A stretch of DNA of 64,000 nucleotides, from the NCBI GenBank assembly GCA_945878375.1, contig CAMDWG010000010.1:22646-86645 (forward strand), written 5' to 3'. Position numbers and translations under genes: made by a program. Numbering within the stretch: the first letter of the stretch is position 1; the number at the start of each line of letters is the position of its first letter. Source of the DNA: Roseomonas mucosa (lineage in GTDB: Bacteria > Pseudomonadota > Alphaproteobacteria > Acetobacterales > Acetobacteraceae). Under the pieces are notes generated by a model. The model was not told the DNA's origin, made no database searches, and saw only the letters and a program-made list of their open reading frames with translations. This document shows, piece after piece, positions 15,139-51,105 of the stretch.

Positions 15139-15779
15139 TGCCCGACGCCCCGACGGAAATCCGCTTCGTCGCGAAGAATATGCGGCTCGACCTCCGCCTG
15201 ATCGCGGAGATGATCGCGCCCGATGCGCGCGTGCTCGACATCGGCTGCGGCGATGGCGCGCTGATCGACCACCTGATCCGCGCGAAGGGCGCCGATGCGC
15301 GCGGCATCGAGATCGACATGGCAGAGGCGACGGAAGCCGTCGCCGCGGGCCTGCCGGTGATCCATGGCGATGCCGATGCGGACCTGGCTTTCTATCCGGA
15401 CGGCGCCTTCGACTATGTCGTGCTGTCGCGCACGCTGCAGGCGGTGGAACGGCCGCGCGAGGTGCTGCGGCAGATGCTGCGGATCGGGCGCTACGCCATC
15501 GTGTCCTTCCCGAATTTCGGCCATTGGCACCTCCGCTGGCGGCTGCTGACCACCGGGCGGATGCCCGACAACGAGACCTGGGATCGCCCCTGGTACGAGA
15601 CGCCGAACATCCACCCCTGCACGATCCGCGATTTCTTCGCGCTCTGCGCCAAGGATGGCTATGTGGTCGAACGCTGGCTGGCGGTGGACGACAAGGGCCT
15701 CAGCACGCCCTGGAAGCGCTCGCCCTGGCTGGCCAATCTGTTCGGCGAACAGGGGCTGTTCCTGCTGCGGCGGGGCTAG
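15138..15779 (+). CDS. metW: Methionine biosynthesis protein MetW
   Basis: VLDIGCGDG, FDYVVLSRTLQ, SFPNFGHW, ETPNIH motifs; overlaps metX stop. Confidence 0.92.
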   Translation: MPDAPTEIRFVAKNMRLDLRLIAEMIAPDARVLDIGCGDGALIDHLIRAKGADARGIEIDMAEATEAVAAGLPVIHGDADADLAFYPDGAFDYVVLSRTLQAVERPREVLRQMLRIGRYAIVSFPNFGHWHLRWRLLTTGRMPDNETWDRPWYETPNIHPCTIRDFFALCAKDGYVVERWLAVDDKGLSTPWKRSPWLANLFGEQGLFLLRRG

Positions 15780-15807
15780 GCCCTTTCCCGGTCCCACCGG
15801 CGCGCCT

Positions 15808-15990
15808 TCAATGCATGCGACGCTGCGCCGGCGGTGTGCCGGGGACCAGGGCTGCCGCCAGGGCGACATGGGCGGCGGCGGCTTCCGCGCCCAGCCGACG
15901 GCATTCCGCTTCGACATAGGCCAGCATCAGCAGCAGCGCCGCATCGTCGTCCGGCTTGGGGGGGGCGGTCATCTCGGTATCGGCGCGCAT
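15808..15990 (-). CDS. Small hypothetical protein (~60 aa)
   Basis: Helical core LLLMLAYVEAECRRLGAEAAAAHVALAAAL; fills a gap without overlapping other genes. Confidence 0.5.
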   Translation of the reverse strand: MRADTEMTAPPKPDDDAALLLMLAYVEAECRRLGAEAAAAHVALAAALVPGTPPAQRRMH

Positions 15991-16140
15991 GACTATTCCA
16001 TTCCGTAAGGCGGGGCGCCGCAGGCGGCGCGAGGGCAGGACGCTTCGCATGCGGGTCACGTCGGCGTGAAGACGCAATCGCTCGGGTCGAGATTCAACCA
16101 GGAATTGGCTTCGCCCGATCAGGCTGCCGGGCGGCCGCCC

Positions 16141-16231
16141 AAAAGAAACCCCGGCGGGAAGGCCCGCCAGGGGAAAGTCGAGGGAGGAAACGTCCAGGAA
16201 CGTCCTCGGGGCGGCTTCCCACCCCGGGACG
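16141..16231 (-). ncRNA. Candidate trans-acting sRNA, MmgR/alpha-r8(suhB)-like, ~90 nt
   Basis: 5' hairpin GTCC-CGGGGTGG/CCGCCCCG-A-GGAC, core TTTCCTCCCT (16181-16190), terminator CCCC-T-GGCGGG/CCCGCC-GGGG + TTTCTTTT; no minus-strand CDS upstream to explain the terminator. Confidence 0.75.
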
Positions 16232-16237
16232 ATCACA

Positions 16238-16279
16238 AGACTAGGCGCGACCGCGCCGACCCGCCTTGATCCAGATCAA
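16238..16279 (-). promoter_or_regulatory. FNR/FixK-type class II promoter for the sRNA
   Basis: Perfect TTGAT-N4-ATCAA at 16266-16279; -10 TAGTCT at 16243-16238 gives +1 at 16231 with the box centred at -41.5. Confidence 0.75.
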
Positions 16280-16401
16280 ACCGTTTTCGGCTCGGATCGG
16301 CAAAGCGTGTTTGCCCTTCCGCGCCGACCTTGCGAGGATGGGGCCAGGGGCGGCGCGGCATCCACGCGCGACCGTTTCGACCGAAACAGGGAAAGCGACA
16401 C

Positions 16402-17124
16402 ATGGCACGAGTGGCTCTCGTCACGGGCGGGCAGCGCGGCATCGGTGCCGCGATCAGCGAAGGGTTGCAGGCGGCGGGCCGCAAGGTTGTCGCCAGCTAT
16501 GCCGGCAACGACGCCGCCGCGCAGGCCTTCACGGAACGCACCGGCATCCCCTGCTACAAATTCGATGTCGGCGACTTCGACGCCTGCGTGGCGACGGTGG
16601 CGAAGATCGAGGCCGAGGTCGGCCCGATCGAGGTGCTGGTGAACAATGCCGGCATCACCCGCGACGCGATGATGCGGAAGCTGACGCGGCAGATGTGGGA
16701 CGACGTGATCGATACCAACCTCGGCAGCTGCTACAACATGTGCAAGGCGGTGTGGGACGGCATGAACGCCCGCAAGTTCGGCCGCATCGTGAATATCGGC
16801 AGCGTCAACGGCCAGGCCGGGCAGCTGGGCCAGGTGAACTACGCGGCGGCGAAGTCCGGCATCCACGGCTTCACCAAGGCGCTCGCCCAGGAAGGCGCGC
16901 GCAACCAGATCACGGTGAATGCGGTCGCGCCCGGCTATGTGGACACCGAGATGGTGCGCGCCGTGCCCGCCGATGTGCTGGAGAAGATCATCGCCCGCAT
17001 CCCGCGCGGCCGCCTCGGCACCGCGCAGGACATCGCGCGCGGCGTGGTGTTCCTCACGGCCGATGAGGCCGATTTCATCACCGGCTCCACGCTGTCGATC
17101 AATGGCGGCCAGCATATGTACTGA
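16402..17124 (+). CDS. phbB: Acetoacetyl-CoA reductase
   Basis: VALVTGGQRGIG, NNAGITRD, NGQAGQLGQVNYAAAKSG, INGGQHMY motifs. Confidence 0.93.
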   Translation: MARVALVTGGQRGIGAAISEGLQAAGRKVVASYAGNDAAAQAFTERTGIPCYKFDVGDFDACVATVAKIEAEVGPIEVLVNNAGITRDAMMRKLTRQMWDDVIDTNLGSCYNMCKAVWDGMNARKFGRIVNIGSVNGQAGQLGQVNYAAAKSGIHGFTKALAQEGARNQITVNAVAPGYVDTEMVRAVPADVLEKIIARIPRGRLGTAQDIARGVVFLTADEADFITGSTLSINGGQHMY

Positions 17125-22313: not shown

Positions 22314-22400
22314 TACCGCTCGCCTATTCCCGCGAGCGTTACCGCTCGACTGTCTCCGCGAGCGTTACCGCTCGCTCGTATCCGCGAGCGTTACCGCTCG
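22314..22400. repeat. Tandem array of 19-nt hairpin repeats, period 26
   Basis: CCGCGAGCGTTACCGCTCG at 22330, 22356 and 22382 plus a partial unit ending 22322; 7-nt variable linkers. Confidence 0.9.
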
Positions 22401-23563
22401 ACGCACATCGCAACCCCCATGCCGCCCCCGATGCACAGCGTGGCGAGGCCCCGCTTCGCGCCGCGGCGCTGCATCTCGTACAGCAGCGTCGTCAGCACCC
22501 GCGCGCCCGATGCGCCGATCGGATGGCCCAGCGCGATCGCGCCGCCATTGACGTTCACCTTCGCCGGATCCCAGCCCAGGTCCTTGTTCACCGCGCAGGC
22601 CTGCGCGGCGAAGGCCTCGTTCGCCTCGATCAGGTCCAGGCTGTCCAGGCTCCAGCCCGCCTTCTGCAGCGCCTTGCGGCTGGCCGGGATCGGGCCCGTG
22701 CCCATGATGGCGGGATCGACGCCCGCCGTGGCCCAGGACACGATCCGCGCCAGCGGGGCGATGCCGCGCTTCGCGGCTTCCGCCGCGCTCATCACCACCG
22801 CGGCGGCCGCGCCGTCATTGATGCCCGACGCATTGCCGGCCGTCACCGTGCCGTCCTTGGCGAAGGCCGGGCGCAGCTTCTGCAGCACGTCGAAGGTGGT
22901 CTCGGGCTTCGGATACTCGTCGTTCTCGACCACCACGTCGCCCTTGCGGCCCTTCACGGTGACAGGCGCGATCTCGTCGCGGAAGCGGCCAGCCTTCATC
23001 GCTTCCCCGGCCTTGCGCTGGCTTTCGGCGGCGAAGCGGTCCTGCTCCTCCCGCGTCAGCTGGAACTTCTGGGCCACGTTCTCGGCCGTGTTGCCCATGT
23101 GATAGCCGTGGAAGGCGTCCCACAGCCCGTCCTTCAGCATCGTATCGATGAATTCGAGGCTGCCCATCTTCTGGCCCGCGCGGAGGTTCGCGCAATGCGG
23201 CGACTGGGTCATGCTCTCCTGCCCGCCGGCGACCACGATCGCCGCATCGCCGGTGGCGATCTGCTGCGCCGCGAGCGCCACGGCGCGCAGGCCGGACCCG
23301 CAGAGCTGGTTGATGCCGAAGGCGGTCCGCTCGGCGGGGATGCCGGCGGCCATCGCGGCCTGGCGGGCCGGGTTCTGGCCGGCGCCGGCCGTCAGGATCT
23401 GGCCGAGGATCACCTCATCCACCTCATCCGGCGTCACGCCTGCGCGGGCGAGGGCGGCCTGGATCGCGACCTGGCCGAGCGCATGCGCGGGCATGGAGGA
23501 AAAGGCGCCGCTGAAGGATCCGACAGGGGTTCGCGCGGCAGAGGCGATGACGATCTCGGTCAT
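22391..23563 (-). CDS. phbA: Acetyl-CoA C-acetyltransferase (beta-ketothiolase)
   Basis: [38 protein letters not shown] motifs. Confidence 0.95.
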
Positions 23564-23639
23564 GTCGTGTCTTCCCTTCCTCGGGCTGTCGCTGGGGATG
23601 TCAGGCTTGGGCCAGCACTTTGGTGCGGTGCGGGGCCAT

Positions 23640-24887
23640 CTACAAGCCGCGCAACCATGACAGCAACGGGCGCCACAGGGCGGCCTCGGCGCCGGTCCCG
23701 GCCACCATGCCGATATGGCCGGCGGCGGCCTCGTGCAGCACCGCGCCGGGCGGCAGCCGGGAGGCCAGGGCGCGGGCCGAGGCAGGGGGGACGATCCGGT
23801 CGCGGTGGGGGATGGCCAGGAAGGCCGGGACCGCCAGCGCCGCCGGGTCCATGACGGCGCCGGCGACGCGCCACGCCAGGCGGGCGGTGGTATTGGCCCC
23901 GTACCAGCCGCCCAGCGTCTCTCGCGCCACGGGCGCGGCCAGCGGGACGCCATCGTTCAGCCAATCCTCCAGCGCCACGAACAGCGCCGCACGCGAAGAC
24001 GCCGGGTCGAGCCGCGCGAAGGCGCGGAATTTCTGCGGGATGCCCCAGGGGTCGAGCCCGGCGAACAGCGCCTGGATAAAATCCACGGGAAGGGTGCCGG
24101 TGGCCCCCATCGCGGGCTCCAGCCCCGGCAGCAGCGCGGCCGCGGCGGCGGCGCGGGTCGCGTCCCCTGGCGTTGCGTGGAAATCCCACGGCGTCGCCAG
24201 CAGCCCAAGCGCGGCCACCCGGTCCGGGCGGCGCAGGGCGGCAGCCAGGGCCAGCAGACCTCCCATACAATAGCCCACCAGCACCACGGGCCCCGGCTGC
24301 GCCGCCAGCATCCTCTCCAGCCGCCCGGCGATGTAGTCGGTCAGGGTGAAGCCGCGTTCGGCCTCCCCGGGCCAGCCCCAGTCGAGCAGCCTGGCGCGCA
24401 CTCCCTGCCCGGCCAGGTGGCGCAGCAGGGAACGCCCCTCCATCAGGTCCAGCACCTGGGCGCGGTTCACCAGGGACGGGACGAAGACCACCGCCGGCCC
24501 CGTGGCGTCGCCCCGTGCGTAATCCAGCAGCCGCGTCTCGCCCTCCGCCCAGATCGCGGGCGGGTCGGGCAGGTCGCGCTCGAAGGGATGGCGGCGATAG
24601 GCGGCGATGCCGGCCAGCAAGGCGCGATCCTCGCGCAGCAGGCGCCGCAGCACGGCGGCGCGGAAGGCCTCAGCCGCGTGGCCGCCTTCGGCGAGGCGCC
24701 CTCGGATCCGGAGCAGCTCCGCGCGGCCGTCCTTCGAGATCGGCCAGGCGTCGCTCCAGCTCGGCCAGCCTTCCGCGAAGGGCGGCATCGGCATCAGCCC
24801 CGCCATCGCGAGCATCCCGCGCCCCGCCCCCAGCATCAGGTGCATCGGCAGCGGGCGCGGGCCGCGGCGACGGAGCGGCGCCGTCAT
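23640..24887 (-). CDS. PhaC-like alpha/beta hydrolase (PHA synthase-type Cys nucleophile)
   Basis: VPSLVNR, GYCMGG lipase-like box with Cys, DRIVPP Asp, GHIGM His; located in the PHB cluster. Confidence 0.75.
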
Positions 24888-25119
24888 CGGCGGGCCGTGC
24901 CGCTGGCCAGGGGGCGGGCGGGCGGCCGAAGGGCGGGGCGGCGGCCGCGCGCAGCCAGGCCGCGCCCAGCGCCGCCCAGGCCGAGGTGGCGGCGGACCAG
25001 GCCTCGGCGGCCTCCCGGTCGGCGGCCAGGGCCGCGATCTCGCTCTGCCAGAGCGTGATCCAGTCCTCGGCGAGGCGCTCGACCTCCTCCTGCTCGGCTT
25101 TCGGCCGATCCGCGTCCAT
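24670..25119 (-). CDS. Hypothetical protein with C-terminal coiled coil, overlapping the PhaC-like gene
   Basis: LAEDWITLWQSEIAALAADRE and [16 protein letters not shown] helices. Confidence 0.6.
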   Translation of the reverse strand: MDADRPKAEQEEVERLAEDWITLWQSEIAALAADREAAEAWSAATSAWAALGAAWLRAAAAPPFGRPPAPWPAARPADDGAAPSPRPAPAADAPDAGGGARDARDGGADADAALRGRLAELERRLADLEGRPRGAAPDPRAPRRRRPRG

Positions 25120-25281
25120 CCAGGCTCCCCTGCCGGTCACGGCCCGGAACCGCTGCCGGCGTCCATCGCCGCCTTGGTTCCAGTCCCGCCAGACCTGCCG
25201 CATCGCGTATTTCGCAGTGCATCGCGACCCATGATAGCATCATCCTGGAAGCGGCGGCACGGCCGCGCGGAAGGCGATCGC

Positions 25282-25893
25282 ATGTCACAGGACACCACGC
25301 TCCCCCCGGATGATGCAGCAGAGGCCCCGGTCGGCCCCCCTGTCGTCGTGAAGAAATACGCGAACCGGCGACTCTACAACACGGAATCCTCGTCCTACGT
25401 CACGCTCGAAGACCTGGCCGGGATGGTGCGGCAGGGCCGCGACTTCGTGGTCTATGACGCCAAGTCGGGGGATGACATCACCCGATCGGTGCTGACCCAG
25501 ATCATCGTCGAGGAAGAAGCGAAGGGGCGGAGCCTGCTGCCGACCTCCTTCCTCCGGCAGATCATCGGCTTCTATGGCGACAGCATGCAGTCGCTGGTGC
25601 CGCGTTATCTTGAGAATGTGATGGGCGCCTTTTCCCGCCAGCAGGTCCAGGTGCGCCGCGCGGTGGAGCAGACGATGGGCGGCTTCAACCCCTTCGGCGG
25701 GCTCGAGGAGATGGGCAAGCAGAACATGGCGATGATGGAACGCGCCATGACGCTGTTCGCCCCCTTCCGCACCGGGGCCGAGCCGCCCGAGGCCGCCGGC
25801 GACGCCGCCCGCATCGCCGCGCTGCAGGCCGAGGTGGACCGGCTGAGGCGGCAGGTTGAGATGCTGCAGGGCGGCCGGCGGGGCGAAGGCTAG
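25282..25893 (+). CDS. phaR: PHA synthesis repressor PhaR/AniA
   Basis: VVKKYANRRLYNTESSSYVTL, DITRSVLTQII, LRQIIGFYG motifs. Confidence 0.95.
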   Translation: MSQDTTLPPDDAAEAPVGPPVVVKKYANRRLYNTESSSYVTLEDLAGMVRQGRDFVVYDAKSGDDITRSVLTQIIVEEEAKGRSLLPTSFLRQIIGFYGDSMQSLVPRYLENVMGAFSRQQVQVRRAVEQTMGGFNPFGGLEEMGKQNMAMMERAMTLFAPFRTGAEPPEAAGDAARIAALQAEVDRLRRQVEMLQGGRRGEG

Positions 25894-50961: not shown

Positions 50962-51077
50962 CGTCCGGGCAAGATGCTTCTCGTCCAGGCGATGCCTCGA
51001 CGTTTTCTCCCGGCGGTTCCGTGCGATGATGTGCGGAGCCTACTTTCCCCGGTGCCTCGCGGCACCGGGGATTTTTT
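50962..51077 (+). ncRNA. Candidate sRNA paralogous to 16141-16231
   Basis: Shared core AGGN-N3-NCCT-SGACGTTTYCTCCC and ACTTTCCCC; terminator CCCCGGTGCC/GGCACCGGGG + ATTTTTT on the plus strand where flanking genes are minus. Confidence 0.7.
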
Positions 51078-51105
51078 CATGGTCGCCGGAGGCAACCGCC
51101 GGGCA

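Follow-up and report, generated by a model that had tools for sequence, protein, structure and literature searches.

A probable alpha-r8 (suhB/MmgR) small RNA gene divergent from phbB in a freshwater Acetobacteraceae genome

Small RNAs of the alpha-r8 family are widespread, and to our knowledge only the MmgR, SuhB and SisA systems have been characterised. MmgR of Sinorhizobium meliloti is encoded by a single copy linked to the gene for N-formylglutamate amidohydrolase (FGase), is 77 nt long and stands under NtrC and AniA/PhaR control. Outside the family, the Hfq-dependent sRNA FnrS of Escherichia coli is transcribed from an FNR-activated class II promoter and represses mRNAs at their ribosome-binding sites (RBS) under low oxygen. 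In Sphingopyxis granuli TFA, targets repressed by SuhB together with Hfq via the Shine-Dalgarno (SD) region include thnR, phbB and a TonB-dependent receptor; SuhB limits PHB granules, and its loss raises PHB (bioRxiv 10.64898/2025.12.09.693200). In Caulobacter, SisA uses the family's 10-mer and represses CCNA_03574, and its siblings have distinct promoters (PMC12559287). Most Alphaproteobacteria carry a single alpha-r8 gene, which lies beside the FGase gene, and some, e.g. Caulobacter with SisA-D, carry several siblings with unrelated promoters (PMC12559287).

Here we describe a further member of the family, in the following called copy B, from a freshwater-lake Acetobacteraceae MAG with 70% G+C. 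It was analysed within a 64-kb window (the term denotes the whole stretch of DNA under analysis), in which its predicted transcript occupies 16141..16231 on the minus strand, as judged from the Rfam model RF00519, the covariance model R1 introduced below, the fold z-score and 16 orthologues. Its divergent neighbour is phbB, encoding acetoacetyl-CoA reductase (16402..17124, plus strand; TIGR01829 335.4 bits at a cut-off of 302.1, Pfam adh_short). With MmgR, copy B shares RF00519, the identical unpaired 10-mer ahead of a Rho-independent terminator, an alphaproteobacterial host and the PHB theme. It differs from MmgR in being an additional copy, ~90 nt long, whose 5' hairpin is longer, whose neighbour is phbB and which carries an FNR/FixK-type box upstream. 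FnrS would share its regulatory logic with copy B, yet it belongs to an unrelated, gammaproteobacterial sequence family and serves as an analogy only. SuhB is of the same family as copy B, and its repression of phbB is the relation proposed for copy B; there, however, phbB is treated as a trans target, adjacency goes unmentioned in the accessible part of the preprint and the regulator is of the LysR type, whereas copy B is phbB-adjacent and carries a CRP/FNR-type box (bioRxiv 10.64898/2025.12.09.693200). The layout of SisA-SisD in Caulobacter crescentus, with several 10-mer copies, unrelated promoters and an FGase-linked SisA, is as found here, whereas the text of that paper contains no oxygen or FixK terms and describes no phbB linkage (PMC12559287). 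In our judgement copy B is probably a genuine trans-acting alpha-r8 (suhB/MmgR/SisA) sRNA gene, a lineage-restricted sibling and not the canonical copy, with a class II promoter bearing a CRP/FNR-family site. What it adds is modest, namely a genus-restricted sibling fixed beside phbB, a sibling-specific FNR/FixK-type box and a hint of a broad match between phbB leaders and the seed; the picture of how such RNAs work is unchanged by copy B. The family is already known, and Rfam detects copy B at its own threshold.

Read on the minus strand from 16231 to 16141, the unit consists of a 5' hairpin, the decamer UUUCCUCCCU and a terminator with a U tail. The G+C-rich 5' stem-loop (16201..16231, minus strand), backed by folding and by covariation in the alignment of the 16 orthologues, exceeds the Rfam consensus hairpin by 13 nt. 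Between the hairpins runs a C/U-rich linker that holds the decamer, the anti-SD seed of the alpha-r8 family, as an exact sequence at 16181..16190 on the minus strand (plus-strand reading AGGGAGGAAA, the reverse complement of UUUCCUCCCU); in the MFE fold nt 47-59 are unpaired and a weak 3-bp helix takes in the first bases of the 10-mer. The Rho-independent terminator (16141..16172, minus strand) comprises a 10-bp stem at 16172-16149 with nine G-C pairs, a 4-nt loop and the tail UUUCUUUU running to 16141, and it is the sole terminator-like site within 15700-16700. Predicted ends at 16230-16233 (5') and in the U tract 16148-16141 (3') would give a transcript of ~88-93 nt. A 112-nt stretch folds with -62 kcal/mol (z = -3.8), which was matched by none of 200 dinucleotide shuffles, and no minus-strand CDS lies upstream of copy B. 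A first-pass annotation of the sequence had listed the terminator, the decamer, the 5' hairpin and the lack of an upstream minus-strand CDS, and all its coordinates proved correct. Genome-wide, the decamer occurs four times in 3.86 Mb with ~3 copies expected from composition, so that the count alone is near expectation and not significant; three of the four copies are surrounded by the CGUUUCCUCCCU-plus-terminator context. A 142-aa ORF spanning the unit (15808-16236) was rejected as coding: it has no family match, the GC3 of its 16236-15991 part is 0.73 vs 0.91 in phbB, and the orthologues show 1-2-nt indels relative to each other in this region.

RF00519 (suhB, 'Makes More Granules Regulator RNA') matches 16219-16134 on the minus strand with 43.1 bits (E = 1.6e-5 for the 64-kb window), the gathering cut-off being 41 bits and the match covering model positions 1-77 of 77. 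The 13-nt insertion within the 5' hairpin keeps the margin at only ~2 bits; in the core, every letter agrees with the model. A scan of the whole window at Rfam gathering thresholds returned two matches, one tRNA and RF00519. Copy B thus combines the full-model score, the exact 10-mer and a 5' stem-loop with a U-tailed terminator, the features by which alpha-r8 RNAs were judged here. The host is alphaproteobacterial, its closest PhbB loci being those of Roseomonas, Sediminicoccus and Falsiroseomonas, all Acetobacteraceae.

In the genome, RF00519 exceeds its cut-off at three sites and scores lower at a fourth. Besides copy B, these are copy A (L001; G000:C5:206060-206134, plus strand) and copy C (L003; G000:C12:49437-49515, minus strand), both over the cut-off and with the exact 10-mer, and copy D (L004; G000:C2:275919-275995, plus strand), which has the different core CUUCCUCAACC and reaches 35.7 bits. 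The only FGase gene of the genome (PF05013) lies on C5, 130 bp from copy A, which is therefore the canonical gene and makes copy B a paralogue. Canonical FGase microsynteny, a mark of orthology and not of family, is absent from copy B, which is flanked by a small ORF/metW and by phbB. The label 'MmgR-like' given in the first-pass annotation consequently holds for family membership and fails for orthology to MmgR, the canonical copy adjoining the FGase gene on contig C5.

The siblings also differ in their upstream regions. Across the genus, A-type copies share the element CTTGCG-N17-CTA(G/A)AT, behind which comes a TGC-N3-GCA dyad (TGTGCATCGCAGCA) resembling an operator of the PhaR/AniA type; no such PhaR/AniA-like dyad was seen in the copy B promoter. 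Copy D is preceded, ~47 nt upstream, by a textbook sigma-54 -24/-12 element (TGGCAC-N5-TTGC) and may be a nitrogen- or enhancer-dependent sibling. With one seed and different promoters, the siblings would probably feed oxygen and possibly nitrogen and carbon/PHB signals into overlapping targets. The locus offers a clean natural case for why bacteria keep several one-seed siblings, with an oxygen-type promoter (B), a sigma-54-type promoter (D) and a canonical FGase-linked one.

When 29 congeneric genomes were searched at the DNA level, the segment from sRNA to phbB was recovered over its whole extent in 16 of them with 67-91% identity (split into two matches on a single contig in G024). In these carriers, 209-252 bp separate the complement of the seed from the phbB start codon that follows it. 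The covariance model R1, built from the 16 copy B orthologues, scores copy B itself with 91.9 bits and found a B-type copy at 76-107 bits in the same 16 of 29 genomes, each time divergent from phbB; in the other 13 congeners it gave no match above 51 bits. Since these 13 genomes, which keep metW-phbB, manage without it, copy B is dispensable, and metW-phbB synteny is kept in nearly all congeners with or without the sRNA. A 25-nt block GGACGUUCCUGGACGUUUCCUCCCU, which contains the 10-mer, is nearly invariant in the 16 orthologues (one substitution each in G003 and G014), and the 10-mer itself is exact in 15 of them, with one substitution in G014 (UUUCCUCCUU). Both hairpins are kept throughout with compensatory changes at three pairs; in the 5' stem-loop these concern pairs 15/26 and 17/24, and the terminator pairs are kept with one compensatory and several G-U changes. 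The spacer ahead of the terminator and everything beyond the terminator diverge among the carriers, the spacer reading AACUCC, GACUCG or GAACUCA in the 14 orthologues other than the present genome (G000) and G043. The earlier description of a ~90-nt alpha-r8/suhB (MmgR-like) anti-SD sRNA divergent from phbB is thus borne out by the search with the Rfam suhB model, in which copy B passes the gathering score (43.1 > 41), and by the linkage in 16 of 16 carriers; core and terminator, whose conservation in related genomes had been put forward as its touchstone, are kept in all 16 carriers among the 29 congeners.

On the phbB tree, the presence of copy B requires at least three gains or losses, and G011, a genome without copy B, retains half of the upstream palindrome described below; the simplest way to read this is that copy B was present ancestrally and has been lost several times. 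Beyond the genus, copy B was found at two of the 80 nearest PhbB loci, in a Roseomonas sp. MAG and in Falsiroseomonas sp. HW251 (L083), and among these 80 it was not found at the PhbB loci of Sediminicoccus, Elioraea, Acidiphilium and Rhodopila.

The physical link to PHB genes that had been noted for the sRNA was recovered as well: phbB is adjacent, and a PHB neighbourhood lies within the window at 22391-25893, 6-9 kb from copy B. It comprises a thiolase (22391-23953 frame, minus strand; TIGR01930 472 bits), a PhaC-like alpha/beta hydrolase (23640-24887, minus strand) with weak likeness to class III synthases (112 bits vs a cut-off of 365) and PhaR (about 25345-25893, plus strand; TIGR01848 149 bits). 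The gene directly 3' of phbB is a yddG-like exporter and not phbA, and the class I PhaC genes and the phasins sit on other contigs.

As the constant neighbour, phbB is a plausible member of the target set of copy B, and as a direct target it stays plausible, unsupported by the predictions made here. Targets were ranked by cofold binding energies over 3287 home-made gene starts, crude calls from which negatives are weak, and full-RNA duplexfold was set aside owing to unrealistic whole-length duplexes. In this ranking phbB attains -9.4 kcal/mol with copy B and rank 565 of 3287 (989 with copy A, 145 with copy C), phaC on C5 ranks 159 and the phasins are unremarkable. Short-seed duplexes place phbB at 1247 of 3291 for the whole linker and at 1167 for the 10-mer, and as a partner of the seed, the phbB leader AGGGAAAG does not stand out. 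The copy-B-specific nt 50-62 (13 nt) give phbB rank 72 of 3291. These include the pairing proposed in the first-pass annotation, in which CUUUCCC (sRNA nt 55-61) is complementary to GGGAAAG in the phbB ribosome-binding region (16389..16395, plus strand) ahead of the ATG at 16402. This pairing is present, extends to 10 bp with one bulge (GGGAAAG-CGA with UCG(A)CUUUCCC) and, as had been remarked, overlaps the terminator stem, namely by two bases; the adjective 'conserved' has to be dropped, since besides G000 only the closest relative (G043) has the CUUUCCC segment. Furthermore, a 16-genome matrix of sRNAs and phbB leaders unveiled no diagonal advantage as a sign of co-evolution (cognate pairs -24.6, non-cognate pairs -25.0 kcal/mol), and when the whole phbB mRNAs of the orthologues were scanned for conserved complementarity to the invariant 25-mer, no such site emerged near the RBS.

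A broader sample was provided by the PhbB loci of 78 other species (L081-L160), 33% of which have at least 7 contiguous nt complementary to the 10-mer within the 25 nt before the start codon, as compared to 1.8% of the start regions of the present genome, a figure to be read with the relatedness of the species, the single-genome background and the crude gene calls in mind. GGGAGGA(AA), which complements the alpha-r8 seed, is strongly over-represented in the leaders, and where GGAGG is present the flanks favour G-GGAGG-A, i.e. a match to the sRNA rather than a generic SD. A full 10-mer complement occurs in the phbB leader L160, and likewise at the phbB SD of G044 and G018 (L059, L061), two genomes without copy B.

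It is possible, although somewhat unlikely, that copy B is a real alpha-r8 sibling whose position has no regulatory meaning, that it represses other mRNAs (e.g. those of aerobic functions) at low O2 and that it stands beside phbB by descent in a stable metXW-phbB region. The ranks of phbB (565 of 3287 and 1247 of 3291), the cognate pairs that are no better than others, the G000-specific pairing that is not conserved, the independence of metW-phbB synteny from the sRNA and the apparent repeated loss of the copy (at least three changes on the phbB tree, half a box in G011) all agree with such an account, which is opposed by the linkage in 16 of 16 carriers, by the direct repression of phbB by a family member in Sphingopyxis, by phbB leaders in many Alphaproteobacteria that are unusually complementary to the seed and by the crudeness of energy rankings built on home-made gene calls. 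The opposite extension, in which the sRNA is a dedicated regulator of its divergent neighbour phbB, low-O2 activation of CRP/FNR type would throttle PhbB translation and couple oxygen to PHB synthesis, and each sibling would bring a different signal to the same seed, appears doubtful to us. Taken together, the fixed position beside phbB, the precedent of SuhB and the leader enrichment turn control of PHB synthesis by alpha-r8 RNAs via phbB into a testable and possibly general rule.

Upstream of copy B lies the palindrome TTGATCCAGATCAA (TTGAT-N4-ATCAA; 16266..16279, without strand), which by its rarity, conservation and other sites in the genome is assigned as a CRP/FNR-family (FNR/FixK-type) box. 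It is 35 bp away from the 5' hairpin base, on the upstream side, and its centre (16272.5) falls at -41.5 from 16231. A -10-like hexamer TAGTCT (16238..16243, minus strand), put forward from sequence, would span -12 to -7 from the same position, and most orthologues have a TA(G/T)NNT-like element aligned with it. Of the palindrome, all 16 orthologues retain the half-sites TTGA(T/C) and (A/G)TCAA, and the four central bases vary.

That this palindrome acts mainly on phbB, as an activator or repressor site, and not on the sRNA promoter is unlikely. It does lie between the divergent genes, and with a predicted phbB start near 16345 it would be placed ~72 bp upstream, a possible class I position. 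However, the distance from box to hairpin is fixed within 1 nt (two orthologues differ by 1 nt), whereas the box lies anywhere between about -130 and -170 relative to the phbB ATG. Moreover, in the 11 sRNA-less genomes inspected the 420 bp upstream of phbB contain no TTGA-N6-TCAA, although the promoter-like elements of phbB (GTTTGCC, ~17 nt, GCGAGGATG; 16308..16339, plus strand), which are conserved genus-wide including the sRNA-less genomes and to which a promoter function is ascribed tentatively, persist there; the box therefore belongs to the sRNA.

Perfect TTGAT-N4-ATCAA boxes occur five times in the genome with 0.1 expected. One lies 85-98 bp before ccoN (TIGR00780, 763 bits) of a ccoNOQP cluster and one ahead of a 407-aa aminotransferase-class, hemA-like gene adjoining puhE, which is where hemA lies in phototrophs. 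A further one (G000:C11:62287-62300) falls between two convergent genes 700 bp apart; an unannotated 52-aa ORF on the minus strand (MTDRETETKLAELDRLL...) follows ~100 bp downstream, and a CRP/FNR-family gene is 2 kb away. Such a distribution of boxes is the pattern of FnrL/FixK-type low-oxygen regulons, which is established for Alphaproteobacteria, and on this basis we infer that copy B is under FNR/FixK-type control. Candidate regulators are the two CRP/FNR-family proteins encoded in the genome (C28, C11), the better of which reaches 61 bits with the FnrL and FixK models, both remaining far below the equivalog cut-offs and showing an ambiguous Cys pattern; the regulator of copy B, and hence the signal, would presumably be of this kind. 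With the puhE/hemA-like genes and the ccoNOQP cluster at the boxed loci G000:C1:235165 and G000:C15:48105, the freshwater MAG has the appearance of an aerobic anoxygenic phototroph that possesses an oxygen-responsive regulon.

For copy B as a trans-acting sibling we propose the following mechanism. A class II promoter with a CRP/FNR-family activator site at -41.5 would drive its transcription, which would probably be on at low oxygen. The resulting RNA of ~90 nt, with its 5' hairpin, single-stranded C/U-rich linker and U-tailed Rho-independent terminator, would represent an Hfq-type module, and hfq is encoded in the genome. In analogy to SuhB and SisA, the seed UUUCCUCCCU would pair with the SD regions of target mRNAs and block their translation with Hfq. 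The public runs in which the stretch occurs are metagenomes from lakes and fresh water. Over 15900-16900, four metatranscriptomes gave contigs only at 16527-16900, in the phbB coding region and many of them from other organisms, in libraries of a type that usually loses small RNAs.

Downstream of copy B on the same strand lies a 60-aa ORF (15808-15990, minus strand) with the core L-x-YVEAECRRLGA and no family match, which congeners possess whether or not they have the sRNA. Everywhere a conserved motif precedes it (16054-16100; TCACG-N4/5-CGTGAAG ... GCAATC/AAAAA ... TTCAACC in plus-strand reading). With this genus-conserved small ORF 150 nt downstream on the same strand, the unit could be read as its 5' leader or attenuator (ORF at 15990-15808) and not as a free-standing sRNA; this is very improbable in view of the strong terminator, the membership in a trans-acting sRNA family, the unconserved sequence between terminator and ORF among the carriers and the small ORF keeping its own motif (16054-16100) in sRNA-less genomes. 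Least credible of all is that there is no gene and a G+C-rich intergenic hairpin matches a short Rfam model by chance, as the ~2 bits over the cut-off and the near-expected decamer count might suggest, against E = 1.6e-5 for the whole window, a 25-nt block that stays nearly invariant between diverging flanks in 16 genomes at 67-91% identity, the conserved structure and two further copies with the same core and architecture.

Elsewhere in the window, at 50962-51082 on the plus strand, a sibling-like unit was observed that consists of CGACGUUUUCUCCC, an extra internal hairpin, ACUUUCCCC and a CCCCGGUGCC/GGCACCGGGG terminator with a U tail; it has no Rfam match at the gathering threshold and scores 15.4 bits with model R1 (E = 0.03).
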